Of a DNA stretch of 39,415 nt, positions 16,238-21,366 are shown piece after piece. Source of the stretch: a virus. Numbering within the stretch: position 1 is the first letter of the stretch; every line of letters starts with the position of its first letter. The position numbers and the translations under genes were made by a program. The notes below the pieces were generated by a model. That model did not search any database and was not told the origin of the DNA. It worked only from the letters and a program-made list of their open reading frames with translations. The stretch lies in UHGV virus genome UHGV-0176211; one strand, 5' to 3'.

Positions 16238-16723
16238 TTATCTGATGTTACTGCTACTGTTGCATGTGACTGTATTTCCAAACCCTGAATTGCAGTTTGT
16301 ATAGGTGTCAACACGCGTTGGGTAAGGTTGAGTTATAACAGGCTGTCTGGCTTTTTGCTCGATCGCTTGCATTGTGTTTAAAGCCTGATAATTCAATAAA
16401 GCCTGCTGAAATGCCTGGCTTTGCGCTATTTGCTGGGCTTGTTCTTGGGCTTGCAATTGAACATAAAGATTCTGAAGCTCAAGTCTTGCCTGCGCGTTAC
16501 TTATCTTGCCTTCATCGACACCTTGCCCGAGCATCTTCGCAGCAAGGACATACAGTTTAGGTGTTGGTGCTGACGCCATGCGTGAGTCGCTCTTCACGCT
16601 GGCATCAAGGCAAGTGGCCATATCGCTAAGCTTTTGATAGCGTTGTTCGCAATTTGCCTGATAGTCACTTACTTTTGCACATCCAACCAGCAGAAACGGG
16701 ATAATTAACAGTGCCTTTTTCAT
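16238..16723 (-). CDS. Lipoprotein (candidate superinfection-exclusion / moron)
   Basis: Signal peptide MKKALLIIPFLLVGC with lipobox LVGC, Gln-rich coiled-coil body; start taken at internal Met (track ORF 16238..16741). Confidence 0.6.
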   Translation of the reverse strand: MKKALLIIPFLLVGCAKVSDYQANCEQRYQKLSDMATCLDASVKSDSRMASAPTPKLYVLAAKMLGQGVDEGKISNAQARLELQNLYVQLQAQEQAQQIAQSQAFQQALLNYQALNTMQAIEQKARQPVITQPYPTRVDTYTNCNSGFGNTVTCNSSSNIR

Positions 16724-16744
16724 ATTGGTAACCCTCATCATTTT

Positions 16745-17401
16745 TTAAGCTCTTGCAATCTTCTCAGCGCATTTACGCACAACTCGCGGTATCGTCTCTT
16801 TCAGCTCATCCCACGAGTTGACAAACTCCATATCAAGAGCCTGAACAAGAGACTTCTGTATCTCGCTGCGCAACTGGTTGGTTTTTGCATCCTGAGAATC
16901 CCAGGTATCAAACCCGGTAACTTCACGGATATCTATCGATTCCTTAACCACCTTTGCAACCTGAATGAAATGACCACTATGACCAATCCTACCTTCTGTA
17001 CGCTCAAGCATCCGACTAACTGCTGCGTTAAGCTCCACAAAACTTGCCGCACCAATGTTTCGCAACTCGACCTGTCTCTGGGTGATAAAACGATCAATGA
17101 CGAGAAAGTGGAAATAAGTGCTGTACTGCTCGGCGACATACACCGCCAGATGGAGACTTAGCCACGTTTTCCCATTCCTTCCTCTCGTTGTTTTTAACGG
17201 AATAATACCAGTCTCCTCTTCACAAACACGCATGAAGTCTTTGCAGTCATCCGTTTTCAGTATCTGAGCAAGATTTCTTGGTTGAAGACCGTTATCAAAT
17301 CTCCATCGGTTCATTTGAACGGTTAGTGTTGACGCATCGATATACTCATCTCTGGTGAACTCGACTTCACCGTATGGGAACTCTAAAGTCTGCACTTTCA
17401 T
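16745..17401 (-). CDS. KilA-N / BRO-N-like DNA-binding domain protein
   Basis: 218 aa; GKTWLSLHLAVYVAEQYSTYFHFLV resembles the KilA-N core; GGAGAA RBS; family tentative. Confidence 0.4.
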   Translation of the reverse strand: MKVQTLEFPYGEVEFTRDEYIDASTLTVQMNRWRFDNGLQPRNLAQILKTDDCKDFMRVCEEETGIIPLKTTRGRNGKTWLSLHLAVYVAEQYSTYFHFLVIDRFITQRQVELRNIGAASFVELNAAVSRMLERTEGRIGHSGHFIQVAKVVKESIDIREVTGFDTWDSQDAKTNQLRSEIQKSLVQALDMEFVNSWDELKETIPRVVRKCAEKIARA

Positions 17402-17462: not shown

Positions 17463-17556
17463 CCATTAATACACAAAATTAGAGCAAATTAGACTTTTTA
17501 GGTGTTTGTGTGTGAACAATCTCTGCCATGCCATCACTCCAAGTTAGTGCGCTGGC

Positions 17557-17589
17557 ATGATAGAATCACTCTACTATATTCTCAATAGG
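17557..17589. promoter_or_regulatory. Arc operator / Pant-like region
   Basis: ATGATAGAATCACTCTACTATATTCTCAATAGG differs by about one base from the P22 Arc operator as I recall it; lies ~40 nt upstream of arc. Confidence 0.6.
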
Positions 17590-17618
17590 TCCACTGTGGG
17601 CCGTGCTGTGAGGTGAAT

Positions 17619-17777
17619 ATGAAAGGAATGAGCAAGATGCCGCAGTTCAATTTGCGGTGGCCTAAAGAAGTGTTGGATTTGGTACGCAAGGTGGCGGAAG
17701 AGAATGGTCGATCTGTTAACTCTGAGATTTATCAGAGAGTAATTGCCAGTCTTAAGAAGGAAGGGCGCATTAGCTAG
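17619..17777 (+). CDS. arc: Arc repressor (ribbon-helix-helix)
   Basis: 52-aa ORF read by eye, MKGMSKMPQFNLRWPKEVLDLVRKVAEENGRSVNSEIYQRV..., near-identical to P22 Arc as recalled; below ORF-track cutoff. Confidence 0.85.
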   Translation: MKGMSKMPQFNLRWPKEVLDLVRKVAEENGRSVNSEIYQRVIASLKKEGRIS

Positions 17778-18024
17778 AATACCTCTTCCGGCAATAGAAG
17801 AGCATTACTACTCAGCAAGGGAGGTTGCAGAGAATCTTGGAGTAACAGCCAACAAGATTGGTCGCATTGCTAACGCAAACAACCTCAAAACTGAGCGGTA
17901 CGGGAAGTTCTTTCTGGATAAATCGTCGCACTCCAGCAAACAGGTAGAGGCGTTCCGTTACAATTCTGAAGGCGTTAAGGCACTACAACACCTGCTAAAT
18001 TTCACGGCGTTTCCTGTCGATTGA
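17743..18024 (+). CDS. Hypothetical HTH-like protein at the ant position (possible remnant)
   Basis: 93-aa ORF whose only ATG lies inside arc in another frame; contains AREVAENLGVTANKIGRIA HTH-like segment; far shorter than P22 Ant (~300 aa). Confidence 0.3.
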   Translation: MPVLRRKGALARIPLPAIEEHYYSAREVAENLGVTANKIGRIANANNLKTERYGKFFLDKSSHSSKQVEAFRYNSEGVKALQHLLNFTAFPVD

Positions 18025-18061
18025 CAGCATGATTGAATTGGTATACATAACAAACGTAACG

Positions 18062-18084
18062 ACCCAGCTTCGGCTGGGTTTTTT
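18062..18084 (+). terminator. Rho-independent terminator
   Basis: ACCCAGC-TTCG-GCTGGGT hairpin followed by TTTTT. Confidence 0.7.
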
Positions 18085-18152
18085 ATGCCAAAAACTCACC
18101 GTAGCCACTCCGTGGCGGTTCCTTGTATATGGAGCAAATTAAATGACAAACA

Positions 18153-18656
18153 TTACAGCCCCAACAGATGGTCAGCAACCATGTTTGCTGCCTTATAAGC
18201 TATAGCTGCCTCATCAATGGTGTTGAATCTCCCAAGAGTTATGTTTTTACCTGAGAGATGTATCTGAGCTTGCCATTGATTTCTGGCTTGACAGAAAGTT
18301 ACCCCCTTGATTCCAGTATTGCTATTTCGAGGTCCGACATTTAACGCATTTACGACCCTGCTAACATCTCTAAGGTTTGAGATTGCGTTATTTCTTCTGT
18401 TTCTATCAATGTGGTCAATCTCTTGTTTTGGCCATTCGCCATATACATACAGCCAGGCAAGTCTATGTGCAAAATATCTTACGCCATCAATACTAATTGC
18501 GTTATACCCACAAGGAGTGATTGTGCCAGCAGCTTTACCAACAGCGCCTCTGGCGCTTAATTTCTTTTTCCAGGTGAAAATTCCTGTTTCTTTATTGTAA
18601 TCTAGAACCTCCATAAGGCGCTCCCGAGTTACTACCTCGTGACGTCTCTTACTCAT
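18153..18656 (-). CDS. HNH endonuclease with AP2-like DNA-binding domain (homing-endonuclease-like)
   Basis: 167 aa; HNH motif [18 protein letters not shown] and AP2-like segment [37 protein letters not shown]. Confidence 0.8.
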
Positions 18657-18669
18657 TATTTTCTCCGGA

Positions 18670-21366
18670 ATGTTTATTATGCCAAATCAATCATACAACG
18701 TTGTCGTTTCACAACCAAGTAACTTATTTACTTTAGCTCGCTCGTTTAAAGCAAATGCCAATGGCAGAATTTATATCGGTAAAATTGACACTGACCCGGT
18801 AAATCCTGAAAACCGGATTCAGGTTTATGTTGAGAATGAAGACGGTTCTCACGTTCCTGTTTCGCAACCAATCATCATTAACGCTGCTGGTTACCCGGTA
18901 TATAACGGGCAAATAGCCAAGTTCGTAACTGTGCAAGGCCATTCTATGGCTGTTTATGATGCATATGGTGCTAAGCAGTTCTATTTTCCTAATGTGCTGA
19001 AGTATGACCCTGATCAGTCATTGAAATATGTAGAAGGGGCATTGCTTGTTACTGACTTAGGTAATGGGACGTTTAAGAATAGTAGCAAAGACGTTGCCAT
19101 TGGGGATAATCTAACAGGAACCAATTTTATTAGAATAAACGGCGGCGTCTATAAATGCACTCCAGTTGCAACTGGAATTGTTACTGAGATCAAAGATAGA
19201 TACATTATCGCAGGCGGGGTTAAAAGCTACCTGTCTCATATTTCCAGACATGTCAGTGGTACGCGTAGGCCGCTGAACTGGAAATTAGAATTCAGCATCA
19301 TAGACAATGAGATTACCGCAGATCTTAAAGGTCAGTATGGTTATACGACCATGGGATTTCAGGGGATTTACATAGACAGCAATGATGGAATGGTATACAT
19401 CGGCTGGCAGACGCTAAACCCCGCATCGGTATGGGTTACGGTGCATGACTGGGCAACAGGAGCATTGGTAACACGTCTTCATTTTCCGAATAACGTTGGT
19501 GCACCAGAAGGCATCCACGTTTACAGAAAAGCAGGGCAGCGCTATATTCTACTGCCGTACAGCCCATCCCGCACTATCAGAATTTACCCTATCGGAGACC
19601 CGCGCACGCTAGCTGATAAAACGCAGATCACAAACTTCACGGAATCACCCAAACTTGGAGTGCGATATCAGTTCAGTGGTTTTGGTAATACCCTGCTATA
19701 CGAAAACGCGGACATGGGTTGGCCGAAAATTTTTGATGTTGAGACAGGTGTATCCAATATCTTTAACACACTGGATATTAACAGCCTTATAGAAGGATCT
19801 TATAGTCCAATGGGGACTATTACGGTTGATGCAAATGTTGGAGGTCGCGGAGCCGGTAAACCAAAACGGCAGGGTGTCGCTCTTGGTTCTCAACGGATAT
19901 TTGCTGGTATTGGTGCATCTACCACGGCGGGATCTGGAAATACTTTCGCAGGGTTGCAGGGTTATATTGAGTACAGCCATTCTGGTTCAGAATTAGGTCA
20001 GTACCTGCTGTCACCTGCAGATTTCAAAACATACTGGGATAGTTATTCAGGGAAGAGTGTTTACTCCACTGAAAATGAGGGGGTGCAGTCTTGTGATATT
20101 TCTGGCTCTGAGGAATTGTATCTTCTACAGTCTATTCGCTATGGCAATGGGGGCGGATCAAATTATAGGACTTTAAACATCATTCGCGCTAACTGTCCAT
20201 CTAATGAACCTGGAACAGTAGACATGAGTCCGCTATCCAATGCCGCATCACAGTTATTTAACCCTCGCGGAAGGGTGATTAACGCTGGCCGTCACCCTGT
20301 AAACCCGGCTGATGGTATTGCGCTATTTACATCGGCACAAGCTATTTGTGACTATTTGCGGAATACAGATGCAGGTAGATATGTGACATATCTTGAACAG
20401 GATATGCCACTGTTTGAAGGTGGGCCATCTGCGCCAGGACAGATGACACTGCCAGCATACTGCATATTGCAGATCGACTTCATCAACGGCGATACCTGGG
20501 AAATTACAGTTAATGGAACCAACAGGGCTAATAATTATACAGGAAGGATTTCCAAAAACGGCGGGTACAACTCTTTTACTAAGGTGTCCTCCCGCAGCAT
20601 GTCGATTCTCGGATCCCCTGGTCTGGTTGATGTATCAATTCGCTCACCTAACTCACCAAATCTTCCAGAATTTGCTGGAGACTGGTCTACTGGTGTAAGT
20701 ATAGGAGAAGCAGGTGGGAAGACAAACTGGCAGCCAGAAGGAACAGGTAACGGAGCATTATGGGAGTCAGGATATGCAAAAAACCGTGTGTTGCAGATAT
20801 TCATGTCCACAACATCAAAACTGTTCTTCCGCTACGCAGGCGATGCTATTCGCGCAGGTAACACAGGCTGGGCTGAGGCATGGTCGTCGCTGAACACGAC
20901 CGTCGATTCAAGTGGTTTCATCAAAAAAGCCTCTCCGGTTGTGAAGATTTTCTCAGACGGTAGTAGTGAAACAAATCGCGAATCAGATGGGGTAACCGTC
21001 ACACGGCTGGCATTGGGTGAATATCTGATTGAGGGTTGCGTAGGTCTGAATGCAGATGCTTCATGGGGTGGGATTGATGGTGGATTTGAAATACCGCAGG
21101 ACCGAAACAAGCAGCCGCTCATCTGGCTGGATTATGTTGTTAACCAAGATGGATCTGTGTTGGTGAAAACGTTTCACCGCACTCATGATAACTCGCCCGT
21201 TTTTGCACGTAACGACATACCTGGTGTTTCGAACGGTGACCCGATCGACATTCCTGCTAATCAATTCGTTTCTGTGCGAGTACAGATGCCTGAGGATTCT
21301 GCATGGAATAAGCTTAAGGAACAACTAAATAAGGCTGAATTGATAGAAGATGATGTTGTGGAATAG
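18670..21366 (+). CDS. Tailspike protein (P22-type head-binding domain plus distinct receptor-binding domain)
   Basis: 898 aa; first ~115 aa ([38 protein letters not shown]...[13 protein letters not shown]...NVLKYDPDQ) match the P22 gp9 N-terminal domain as recalled; remainder not P22-like. True start may be ATG 18679. Confidence 0.85.

Follow-up and report, generated by a model that had tools for sequence, protein, structure and literature searches.

The DNA analysed here is a stretch of 39,415 nucleotides (UHGV virus genome UHGV-0176211), referred to as the window throughout. It represents a P22-like (Lederbergvirus-type) genome, whose virion genes are ~94% identical to those of CUS-3, Kapi1, Sf101 and Huey. 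In P22-like phages, the tailspike locus is a textbook example of how host range is determined by the exchange of modules. In the window, the tailspike gene (positions 18,679–21,366, plus strand) encodes a Head_binding N-terminus and a Phage_tail_C_2 C-terminus, and a gene for a 167-aa endonuclease of the HNH_3 plus AP2 type is found next to it on the minus strand (18,153–18,656; ATG at 18,656, stop codon TAA at 18,155–18,153). Further to the left, the plus strand carries arc (17,613–17,777) and a 93-aa ORF resembling an antirepressor remnant (17,743–18,024), which overlaps the 3' end of arc and corresponds to the last ~80 residues of P22-type Ant (positions 181–259 of 264 in phrog_1726); relatives have an Ant of 290–310 aa here. 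Where P22 has mnt, the window contains two other ORFs on the minus strand (16,238–17,401). One of them, of 218 aa, matches phrog_6095, labelled ‘amidase’, and weakly KilA-N, and the other, of 167 aa, has a lipoprotein signal (…LLVGC) and matches phrog_6067. Both are candidate morons, which might be driven from divergent promoter-like sites at 17,552–17,585.

A preliminary description of the window had noted an HNH_3 plus AP2-like protein of 167 aa on the strand opposite to the tailspike gene, and such a protein is indeed encoded. Pfam HNH_3 (PF13392) covers residues 61–104 with 59.7 bits as compared to a cut-off of 24.8 (E=2.2e-16), and the PHROG family phrog_99 ‘HNH endonuclease’ matches the ORF with E=1.3e-62. 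The match of Pfam AP2 (PF00847) to residues 114–157 scores 25.9 bits (E=1.3e-5), which is below the cut-off of 33.3; AP2 is weak or faint in the precomputed Pfam matches of homologues as well. A protein search returned 484 homologues at E<=1e-10. The protein is under purifying selection, with a dN/dS of 0.17 relative to the Kapi1 copy and of 0.086 relative to the Salmonella copy, beyond which synonymous sites are saturated. Because of these ratios and the number of homologues, the ORF does not represent a chance reading frame.

An AlphaFold2 model computed from an alignment of 61 homologues reached a pLDDT of 88.5. In this model, the HNH domain consists of strands 79–82 and 95–98 followed by helix 100–105, that is a beta-beta-alpha-metal fold, and the closest fold in the PDB is that of the homing endonuclease I-HmuI of phage SPO1 (1u3e; Foldseek E=3.8e-4, 96 aligned columns). 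The AP2 part comprises strands 119–122, 127–134 and 137–144 and helix 147–166. Its 42–45 C-terminal residues superpose on the plant AP2 domains of TEM1 (7et4/7et5) and AtERF1 (1gcc) with an rmsd of 1.4 A and 31–40% identity, and the model thus displays the three-stranded sheet on a C-terminal helix, superposable on solved structures, that characterizes the AP2 fold. A sequence search of the PDB matched I-HmuI as the sole nuclease (E=0.037). The general-base histidine and the metal-ligand Asp/Asn residues of I-HmuI are reportedly D74, H75, N87 and N96. In the alignment with 1u3e, residues D74, H75, N83, N87 and N96 of I-HmuI coincide with D81, H82, N90, N94 and N103 of the window protein; the 61 homologues show no variation at D81, N90 and N94 and a conservation of at least 90% at H82 and N103. 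As judged from these positions, the active site of the protein is intact. Boxes HRLAWL and WP and the motif DH...NN...NL...N, as reported for phage HNN-AP2 endonucleases (PMC2248197), are likewise present in the protein. Its architecture, which had been considered typical of free-standing homing endonucleases, is borne out by the domains, the I-HmuI-like fold and the AP2 superposition.

Residues 1–14 of the protein show conservation throughout the clade, and several relatives have I or L in place of Met at residue 15, so that 18,656 is the true start of the gene. The shorter start used in RefSeq, at Met15 (window position 18,614), was ruled out since this position is I or L in the copies of a metagenomic locus (L010), Citrobacter and Mixta. 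Thus, RefSeq probably calls the E. coli copies 14 codons too short; the Met15 start is used in three RefSeq E. coli prophage loci (L005, L006 and L007).

A promoter for the HNH gene can be proposed on the minus strand at 18,690–18,718, composed of a candidate −35 hexamer TTGGTT (18,718–18,713), a 17-nt spacer and a candidate −10 hexamer TATGAT (18,695–18,690), which ends 33 nt upstream of the HNH ATG. A −10-like hexamer is present 31–40 nt upstream of this ATG in all lineages, within the first tailspike codons, and reads TATGAT in the window and TATAAT in most HNH-plus loci; in two of the loci (L045 and L046) the promoter match is 11/12. This candidate is confounded by coding sequence because alleles lacking the HNH gene also read TATAAT at this place, and the hexamer may be a by-product of the ATT ATA codons. 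Another promoter-like hit (18,685 to 18,658) was dismissed, as its transcript would start past the conserved ATG and such hits are just as numerous as expected by chance. Likewise, a plus-strand terminator-like hairpin at 18,543–18,557 was treated as a chance occurrence, its stem having a mismatch in Kapi1.

We aligned the window with Kapi1, which carries the HNH gene, and with N7 and epsilon34, which do not. The tailspike genes of N7 and epsilon34 start with ATGACAGACATTACAGCC/AATGTG, and the start region of HNH-minus tailspike genes reads GGAGCAAATTAA-ATG ACA GAC ATT ACA GCC AAT GTG; junctions without the HNH gene, such as those of N7 or HK620, contain GGAGCAAATTAAATGACAGACATTACAGCCAATGTGATCGTATCG. 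The window has retained GGAGCAAATTAA-ATG ACA AAC ATT ACA GCC at 18,131–18,160, that is an orphan of the ancestral tailspike start with ribosome-binding site GGAG (18,131–18,134) and six codons (18,143–18,160; MTNITA) on the plus strand. To the right, homology of the window picks up with AAC GTT GTC GTT TCA (NVVVS), and in an empty-site allele (L004) with AAT GTT GTT GTT TCA, corresponding to window position 18,697 onward. As compared to empty sites, a cassette of 536 bp (18,161–18,696) hence separates codon 6 of the ancestral tailspike ORF from codon 7, and the alignment indicates that no target bases were lost. The cassette provides the coding sequence of the HNH gene, a spacer of 22 nt that separates the two divergent starts (18,657–18,678) and is conserved in the Kapi1 and E. 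coli copies, as well as a new ATG for the tailspike and six new codons. On the opposite strand, the orphan codons supply the last two codons and the stop codon of the HNH gene. On its left the cassette is flanked by the leader between the ant terminator and the tailspike gene (18,047–18,142, plus strand; terminator hairpin at 18,061–18,080 followed by a T run), which is common to HNH-minus phages and 96–97% identical among HNH-minus E. coli loci, and on its right by the coding sequence of the head-binding domain (18,697–19,017, plus strand). We read these flanks as the left and right homology arms, respectively.

The tailspike re-initiates from the start codon supplied by the insert, its new N-terminus being encoded by ATG CCA AAT CAA TCA TAC (MPNQSY) at 18,679. 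The distance of ~13–22 bp given previously between the HNH and tailspike starts is correct: 13 nt separate the HNH ATG from an additional in-frame ATG at 18,670 and 22 nt from ATG 18,679, which is the start conserved in relatives. The HNH gene had also been described as abutting the tailspike start; this holds for the closely spaced divergent start codons, but the gene actually resides within the ancestral tailspike ORF, after its sixth codon. The spacer contains a good Shine-Dalgarno sequence for the HNH gene (GGAG at 18,666–18,663 on the minus strand, spacing of 6 nt) and on its plus strand a weak GGA ahead of the tailspike ATG. The Shine-Dalgarno sequence of the orphan is strong as compared to the weak one at the restarted tailspike gene, and orphan ribosome-binding site and ATG still open a 20-codon ORF (18,143–18,205, plus strand), which is located on the strand of the late transcript and antisense to the 3' end of the HNH gene. 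Such an orphan start can mislead the calling of tailspike starts.

A search with Rfam for an intron or structured RNA gave no match at E<=1 between 17,300 and 19,300, and such elements around the HNH gene, including a group I intron, were therefore discarded. The gene is part of neither an intron nor an intein: it lies on the strand opposite to the tailspike gene, the latter has its own restart codon, and the Rfam search remained blank. We also discarded an assignment to the terminase-associated HNH proteins of the HK97 gp74 type, which are encoded beside terminase and portal genes of cos-type phages, as the gene is located between the immI region and the tailspike gene and HNH_3 is the only HNH family matched.

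The conserved junction was present in 84 of 5,426 complete E. coli genomes, and an HNH gene occupied it in 15 of these 84, the remaining 69 being empty. In the HNH-minus E. coli genomes, homology to the window ends at 18,148–18,160. Similarly, only two of 45 Head_binding loci in species-representative genomes have an HNH gene upstream (43 are empty), and Kapi1 is the only HNH-plus phage among 82 matching phage records. P22, HK620, Sf6, CUS-3, N7 and epsilon34 lack the gene. The statement that P22 has nothing at this place proved right: P22 and most other relatives match the window only up to 18,160 and are therefore without the gene. Thus, comparison of the junction across relatives reveals presence/absence polymorphism, and universal conservation at this position, which the preliminary description had taken to speak against its proposal, is therefore not observed. 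No HNH-minus phage sharing the receptor-binding domain of the window was found in the phage collection.

The closest homologues of the window protein whose context we read occur in Salmonella (82% identity), a metagenomic lineage (79%), Citrobacter (79%), Mixta (77%) and Serratia marcescens (67%). All homologues of at least 67% identity whose context we read are encoded divergently against the Head_binding tailspike gene of a P22-like prophage, while the receptor-binding domains differ among these loci. The same arrangement was found in 30 further IMG/VR loci with at least 74% identity. A homologue with 47% identity sits in the nin region instead. Except for one locus whose left end is deleted (L006), the HNH-plus loci carry the orphan GGAG-N7-ATG plus one to seven codons at the HNH stop, and their tailspike genes restart 13–35 nt beyond the HNH ATG. 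The restarted N-terminus resembles a second copy of the usual N-terminus in Salmonella, Citrobacter, Mixta and Serratia (MSDSIIPNVV, MTDNIIPNVV), and reads MP(N/E)Q(S/L)YNVV in the window and Kapi1 as well as in several further loci. This HNH lineage therewith appears to occupy specifically the tailspike 5' end in P22-like phages. Intact genes were found in 45 of 47 copies. The two degenerate ones are that of L006, in which the deletion replaced the last ~15 residues and removed the orphan, and that of L049, which has a frameshift after approximately residue 118.

The closest relatives of the window gene are Kapi1_066 of Escherichia phage vB_EcoP_Kapi1 (MT813197) and the RefSeq E. coli prophage genes for an ‘HNH endonuclease signature motif containing protein’. 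They are orthologues with 94–95% nucleotide and amino acid identity and agree with the window in insertion site, spacer and restarted tailspike. The window copy represents a distinct sub-lineage, ~95% identical to the other copies, which share 99.6% identity among themselves, and its orphan is the most complete, with all six ancestral codons. In Kapi1 and the RefSeq prophages, the gene is already labelled ‘HNH endonuclease’. No paper mentioning both ‘Kapi1’ and ‘HNH’ was retrieved and the papers on Kapi1 are silent on the gene; those on P22-like phages that name homing endonucleases concern other sites, namely gene 31 of epsilon34 and a position between terminase and portal in SEN22. In the searchable literature we found no discussion of the site specificity, the orphan start or the second lineage described below.

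A second HNH_3/AP2-like gene, only 35% identical to that of the window, occurs in an E. coli locus (L054:883–1422, minus strand). Its stop codon is positioned on the same orphan nucleotide (…ATGTCAGATA/TCACCTAC…), and its last two codons and the stop codon are common to the Kapi1-type cassette. Genes of this type are found in at least 15 complete E. coli genomes, again beside tailspike genes. Two lineages at a single nucleotide argue for targeting of the site; this could reflect independent targeting by each of them or replacement of the ORF in place. Among HNH-minus tailspikes (L004:3097 onward and L103–L106) there are two N-terminal alleles, MTDITAN and MTDSINAN, the latter being identical to the restarted N-terminus of the L054-type cassette. 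MTDSINAN could be a scar left when the orphan and restart repeats recombined and the HNH gene was lost, or else the source allele of the cassette. In HNH-minus loci, codons 2–7 form the least conserved part of the head-binding sequence (82%).

The 24 HNH copies of the E. coli type have a mean nucleotide identity of 99.55% (minimum 98.6%), as compared to 93.3% in the adjoining 339 nt of the tailspike gene and 76% in the left 100 nt. To the right, identity among HNH-plus loci amounts to 98.8, 100, 97.2, 95.3, 93.1, 89.4, 93.3 and 86.4% in successive blocks of 40 nt and collapses at ~19,017, where the head-binding domain gives way to the receptor-binding domain. No such gradient was seen in a control consisting of ten HNH-minus E. 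coli loci, whose least conserved segment (82%) is found at +10 to +49, around the insertion point. An element more uniform than its flanks, with identity decaying with distance, would be the signature of co-conversion, and ordinary recombination may produce it too. Between 18,727/18,757 and 19,018 the window is 90.8% identical to HK620, 92.0% to CUS-3 and 92.7% to 720R6, all of them HNH-minus phages; downstream of the restart it is thus about as similar to HNH-minus phages as the distal head-binding sequence is to HNH-plus loci (86–94% per 40-nt block). The first 30 nt of HNH-minus tailspike genes are the best-conserved block across genera, with a value of 0.80 as compared to 0.67–0.78 elsewhere. 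This slight excess is not a strong argument for targeting, as far as nucleotide conservation of the presumed target is concerned.

The idea that the nuclease might bias inheritance of the linked tailspike allele was, in this form, not supported by these data. A single cluster of near-identical HNH genes, comprising 26 loci, is combined with at least 18 clusters of receptor-binding domains and nine clusters of left flanks, and therefore gives no sign of dragging along one receptor allele; moreover, the tract of high identity ends within the head-binding domain, ~100–300 nt from the gene. What appears to travel with the HNH gene is the first 100–300 nt of the head-binding domain rather than the receptor-binding part, although the receptor-binding domain may be co-transferred in a single cross.

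Taken together, we consider it probable that a free-standing homing endonuclease of the HNH_3 (‘HNN’) plus AP2 class is encoded here. HNH/HNN-AP2 proteins are an accepted class of homing endonucleases according to Magnani 2004, as cited in PMC10448857, and free-standing members are known from the Xanthomonas phages Xp10, OP1 and Xop411 (PMC2248197) and as the IPA-HNH genes of ICP1 (PMC10448857). With these phage proteins the window protein shares the two-domain layout, the boxes (HRLAWL, WP, DH..N..NN, NLR), the free-standing state and a patchy distribution. However, the Xanthomonas phage genes were reported at variable positions and without conserved flanks (PMC2248197), whereas the window lineage has one fixed insertion point, inside coding sequence, in at least five genera. 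With I-HmuI, to which it is ~25% identical, the protein has in common the DH...NN...N...N active-site pattern and an N-terminal beta-sheet followed by the beta-beta-alpha-metal motif. Unlike I-HmuI, whose gene resides in a group I intron and whose C-terminal domain is of the helix-turn-helix type, the window protein is free-standing, is encoded on the strand opposite to its target gene and ends in AP2. A further parallel is provided by Aeromonas phage Aeh1, in which insertion of mobE splits nrdA (PMC3045599; reviewed in PMC2988022): here too, a free-standing HNH gene is located inside a protein-coding gene in the absence of an intron or intein, and the interrupted gene stays functional. In Aeh1, both halves of nrdA are translated and reassemble; in contrast, only six codons are cut off from the window tailspike gene, the rest of which re-initiates with a new or duplicated N-terminus, and the endonuclease is encoded on the opposite strand.

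Homing may proceed as follows in a cell that contains an HNH-plus phage or prophage together with an HNH-minus P22-like genome. The conserved uninterrupted sequence GGAG-N7-ATG-NCN-GAY-ATT-ACN-GCN/AAT-GTN-GTN (the slash marks the boundary between codons 6 and 7) would be bound by the AP2 domain along with the N-terminal beta-sheet of the I-HmuI-like module, and a nick or cut would be introduced close by through the HNH active site. Repair by recombination on the HNH-plus template, using the ant-terminator leader and the head-binding-domain sequence as arms, would then copy in the cassette together with roughly 100–300 nt of head-binding sequence. Since the cassette splits the presumed target in two, carriers would be immune. 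Cleavage, target specificity, expression and super-Mendelian inheritance are elements of this model that we infer. A nick as the initiating event is plausible because I-HmuI, the closest structural relative, and T4 MobE (PMC2790892) are nicking enzymes, as is the related HNH homing endonuclease I-PfoP3I (PMC3428280). Cleavage, nicking or gene-conversion experiments on this protein or members of its clade were not found in the searchable literature. The HNH copies look as if they had spread recently, which would fit homing. Several observations are less readily accommodated. That is, the gradient could also arise if ordinary homologous recombination eroded the flanks of a recently shared segment. 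Simple break repair does not explain the duplicated start, i.e. orphan plus restart, and the gene is antisense to late transcription. Finally, the clade has held its position up to synonymous saturation between genera, which is longer than a simple cycle of invasion, decay and loss predicts.

Such long persistence could mean that the gene is kept because it is beneficial to the phage. For instance, a former homing endonuclease may have been retained for competition or exclusion, in that it cuts incoming HNH-minus phages of the P22-like group at the 5' end of their tailspike gene, with homing as a by-product. Strong purifying selection (dN/dS of 0.09–0.17), conservation of the position in five genera with saturated synonymous sites and the intactness of 45 out of 47 copies would all agree with such a role, as would the placement of the gene in a region rich in immI/moron genes and opposite to the late operon, like many genes expressed in lysogens. 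However, the site is empty in most relatives, arguing that any benefit is not general, and PADLOC yielded nothing but its generic homing endonuclease model (‘HEase’, E=4e-7), while NCBIfam returned nothing, for which reason we also rejected the gene as component of a defence system. Although exclusion and homing are inseparable from sequence data since both need the same cleavage step, we regard a primary role in exclusion as unlikely.

Alternatively, the gene could be a passenger without nuclease role, inserted once long ago, inherited with the head-binding 5' end and moved from phage to phage solely by ordinary homologous recombination within a mosaic hotspot. In fact, the ant-to-tailspike junction, at which the CUS-3 record annotates a ‘boundary sequence’, and the boundary between head-binding and receptor-binding domains are recombination boundaries even in HNH-minus loci, and identity collapses at ~+330 nt in HNH-plus and HNH-minus sets alike. 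Yet a functionless gene should gather disabling mutations, whereas this gene has invariant catalytic residues and a dN/dS far below 1. Moreover, neither flank comes close to the uniformity of the HNH copies, the HNH-minus controls show no gradient, and a second HNH lineage is found at the same nucleotide, all of which makes passive inheritance improbable. We attach still less weight, so little as to regard it as very improbable, to a role in tailspike expression, in which AP2 would bind the shared 22-nt control region, or a divergent antisense transcript would modulate translation, the HNH domain being vestigial. The HNH and tailspike start codons are indeed only 22 nt apart, the Shine-Dalgarno sequence at the restart is weaker than that of the orphan, and an HNH mRNA initiated from the conserved −10-like element in the first tailspike codons would overlap the tailspike ribosome-binding region in antisense. 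However, this hexamer also occurs in HNH-minus alleles and may only reflect codon content, most P22-like phages make their tailspike without an HNH gene, and every residue aligned with the catalytic and metal-binding positions of I-HmuI is conserved. Given the conserved active site and the gradient specific to HNH-plus loci, both the passenger and the regulator are poor fits.

Assuming a homing endonuclease, the element itself is an ordinary HNH-AP2 gene; it is the location that is unusually precise and recurrent. In phages of E. coli, Salmonella, Citrobacter, Mixta and Serratia, a selfish site-specific nuclease lineage would sit exactly at the left edge of the host-range module, and its location inside the tailspike ORF would be tolerated by re-initiation. 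The HNH gene is thereby a concrete candidate for a source of break-induced recombination at the tailspike module boundary, for which Kapi1 offers a ready experimental system. More tentatively, and with considerable doubt, one might propose that the tailspike 5' end is a dedicated homing site, recurrently invaded by at least two HNH-AP2 lineages across Enterobacterales, where breaks help to create the left boundary of the host-range module and explain the unusual variability of codons 2–7 in HNH-minus loci as well as MTDSINAN as a scar of gain and loss. If true, a selfish nuclease would contribute to the shuffling of host-range modules in P22-like phages.
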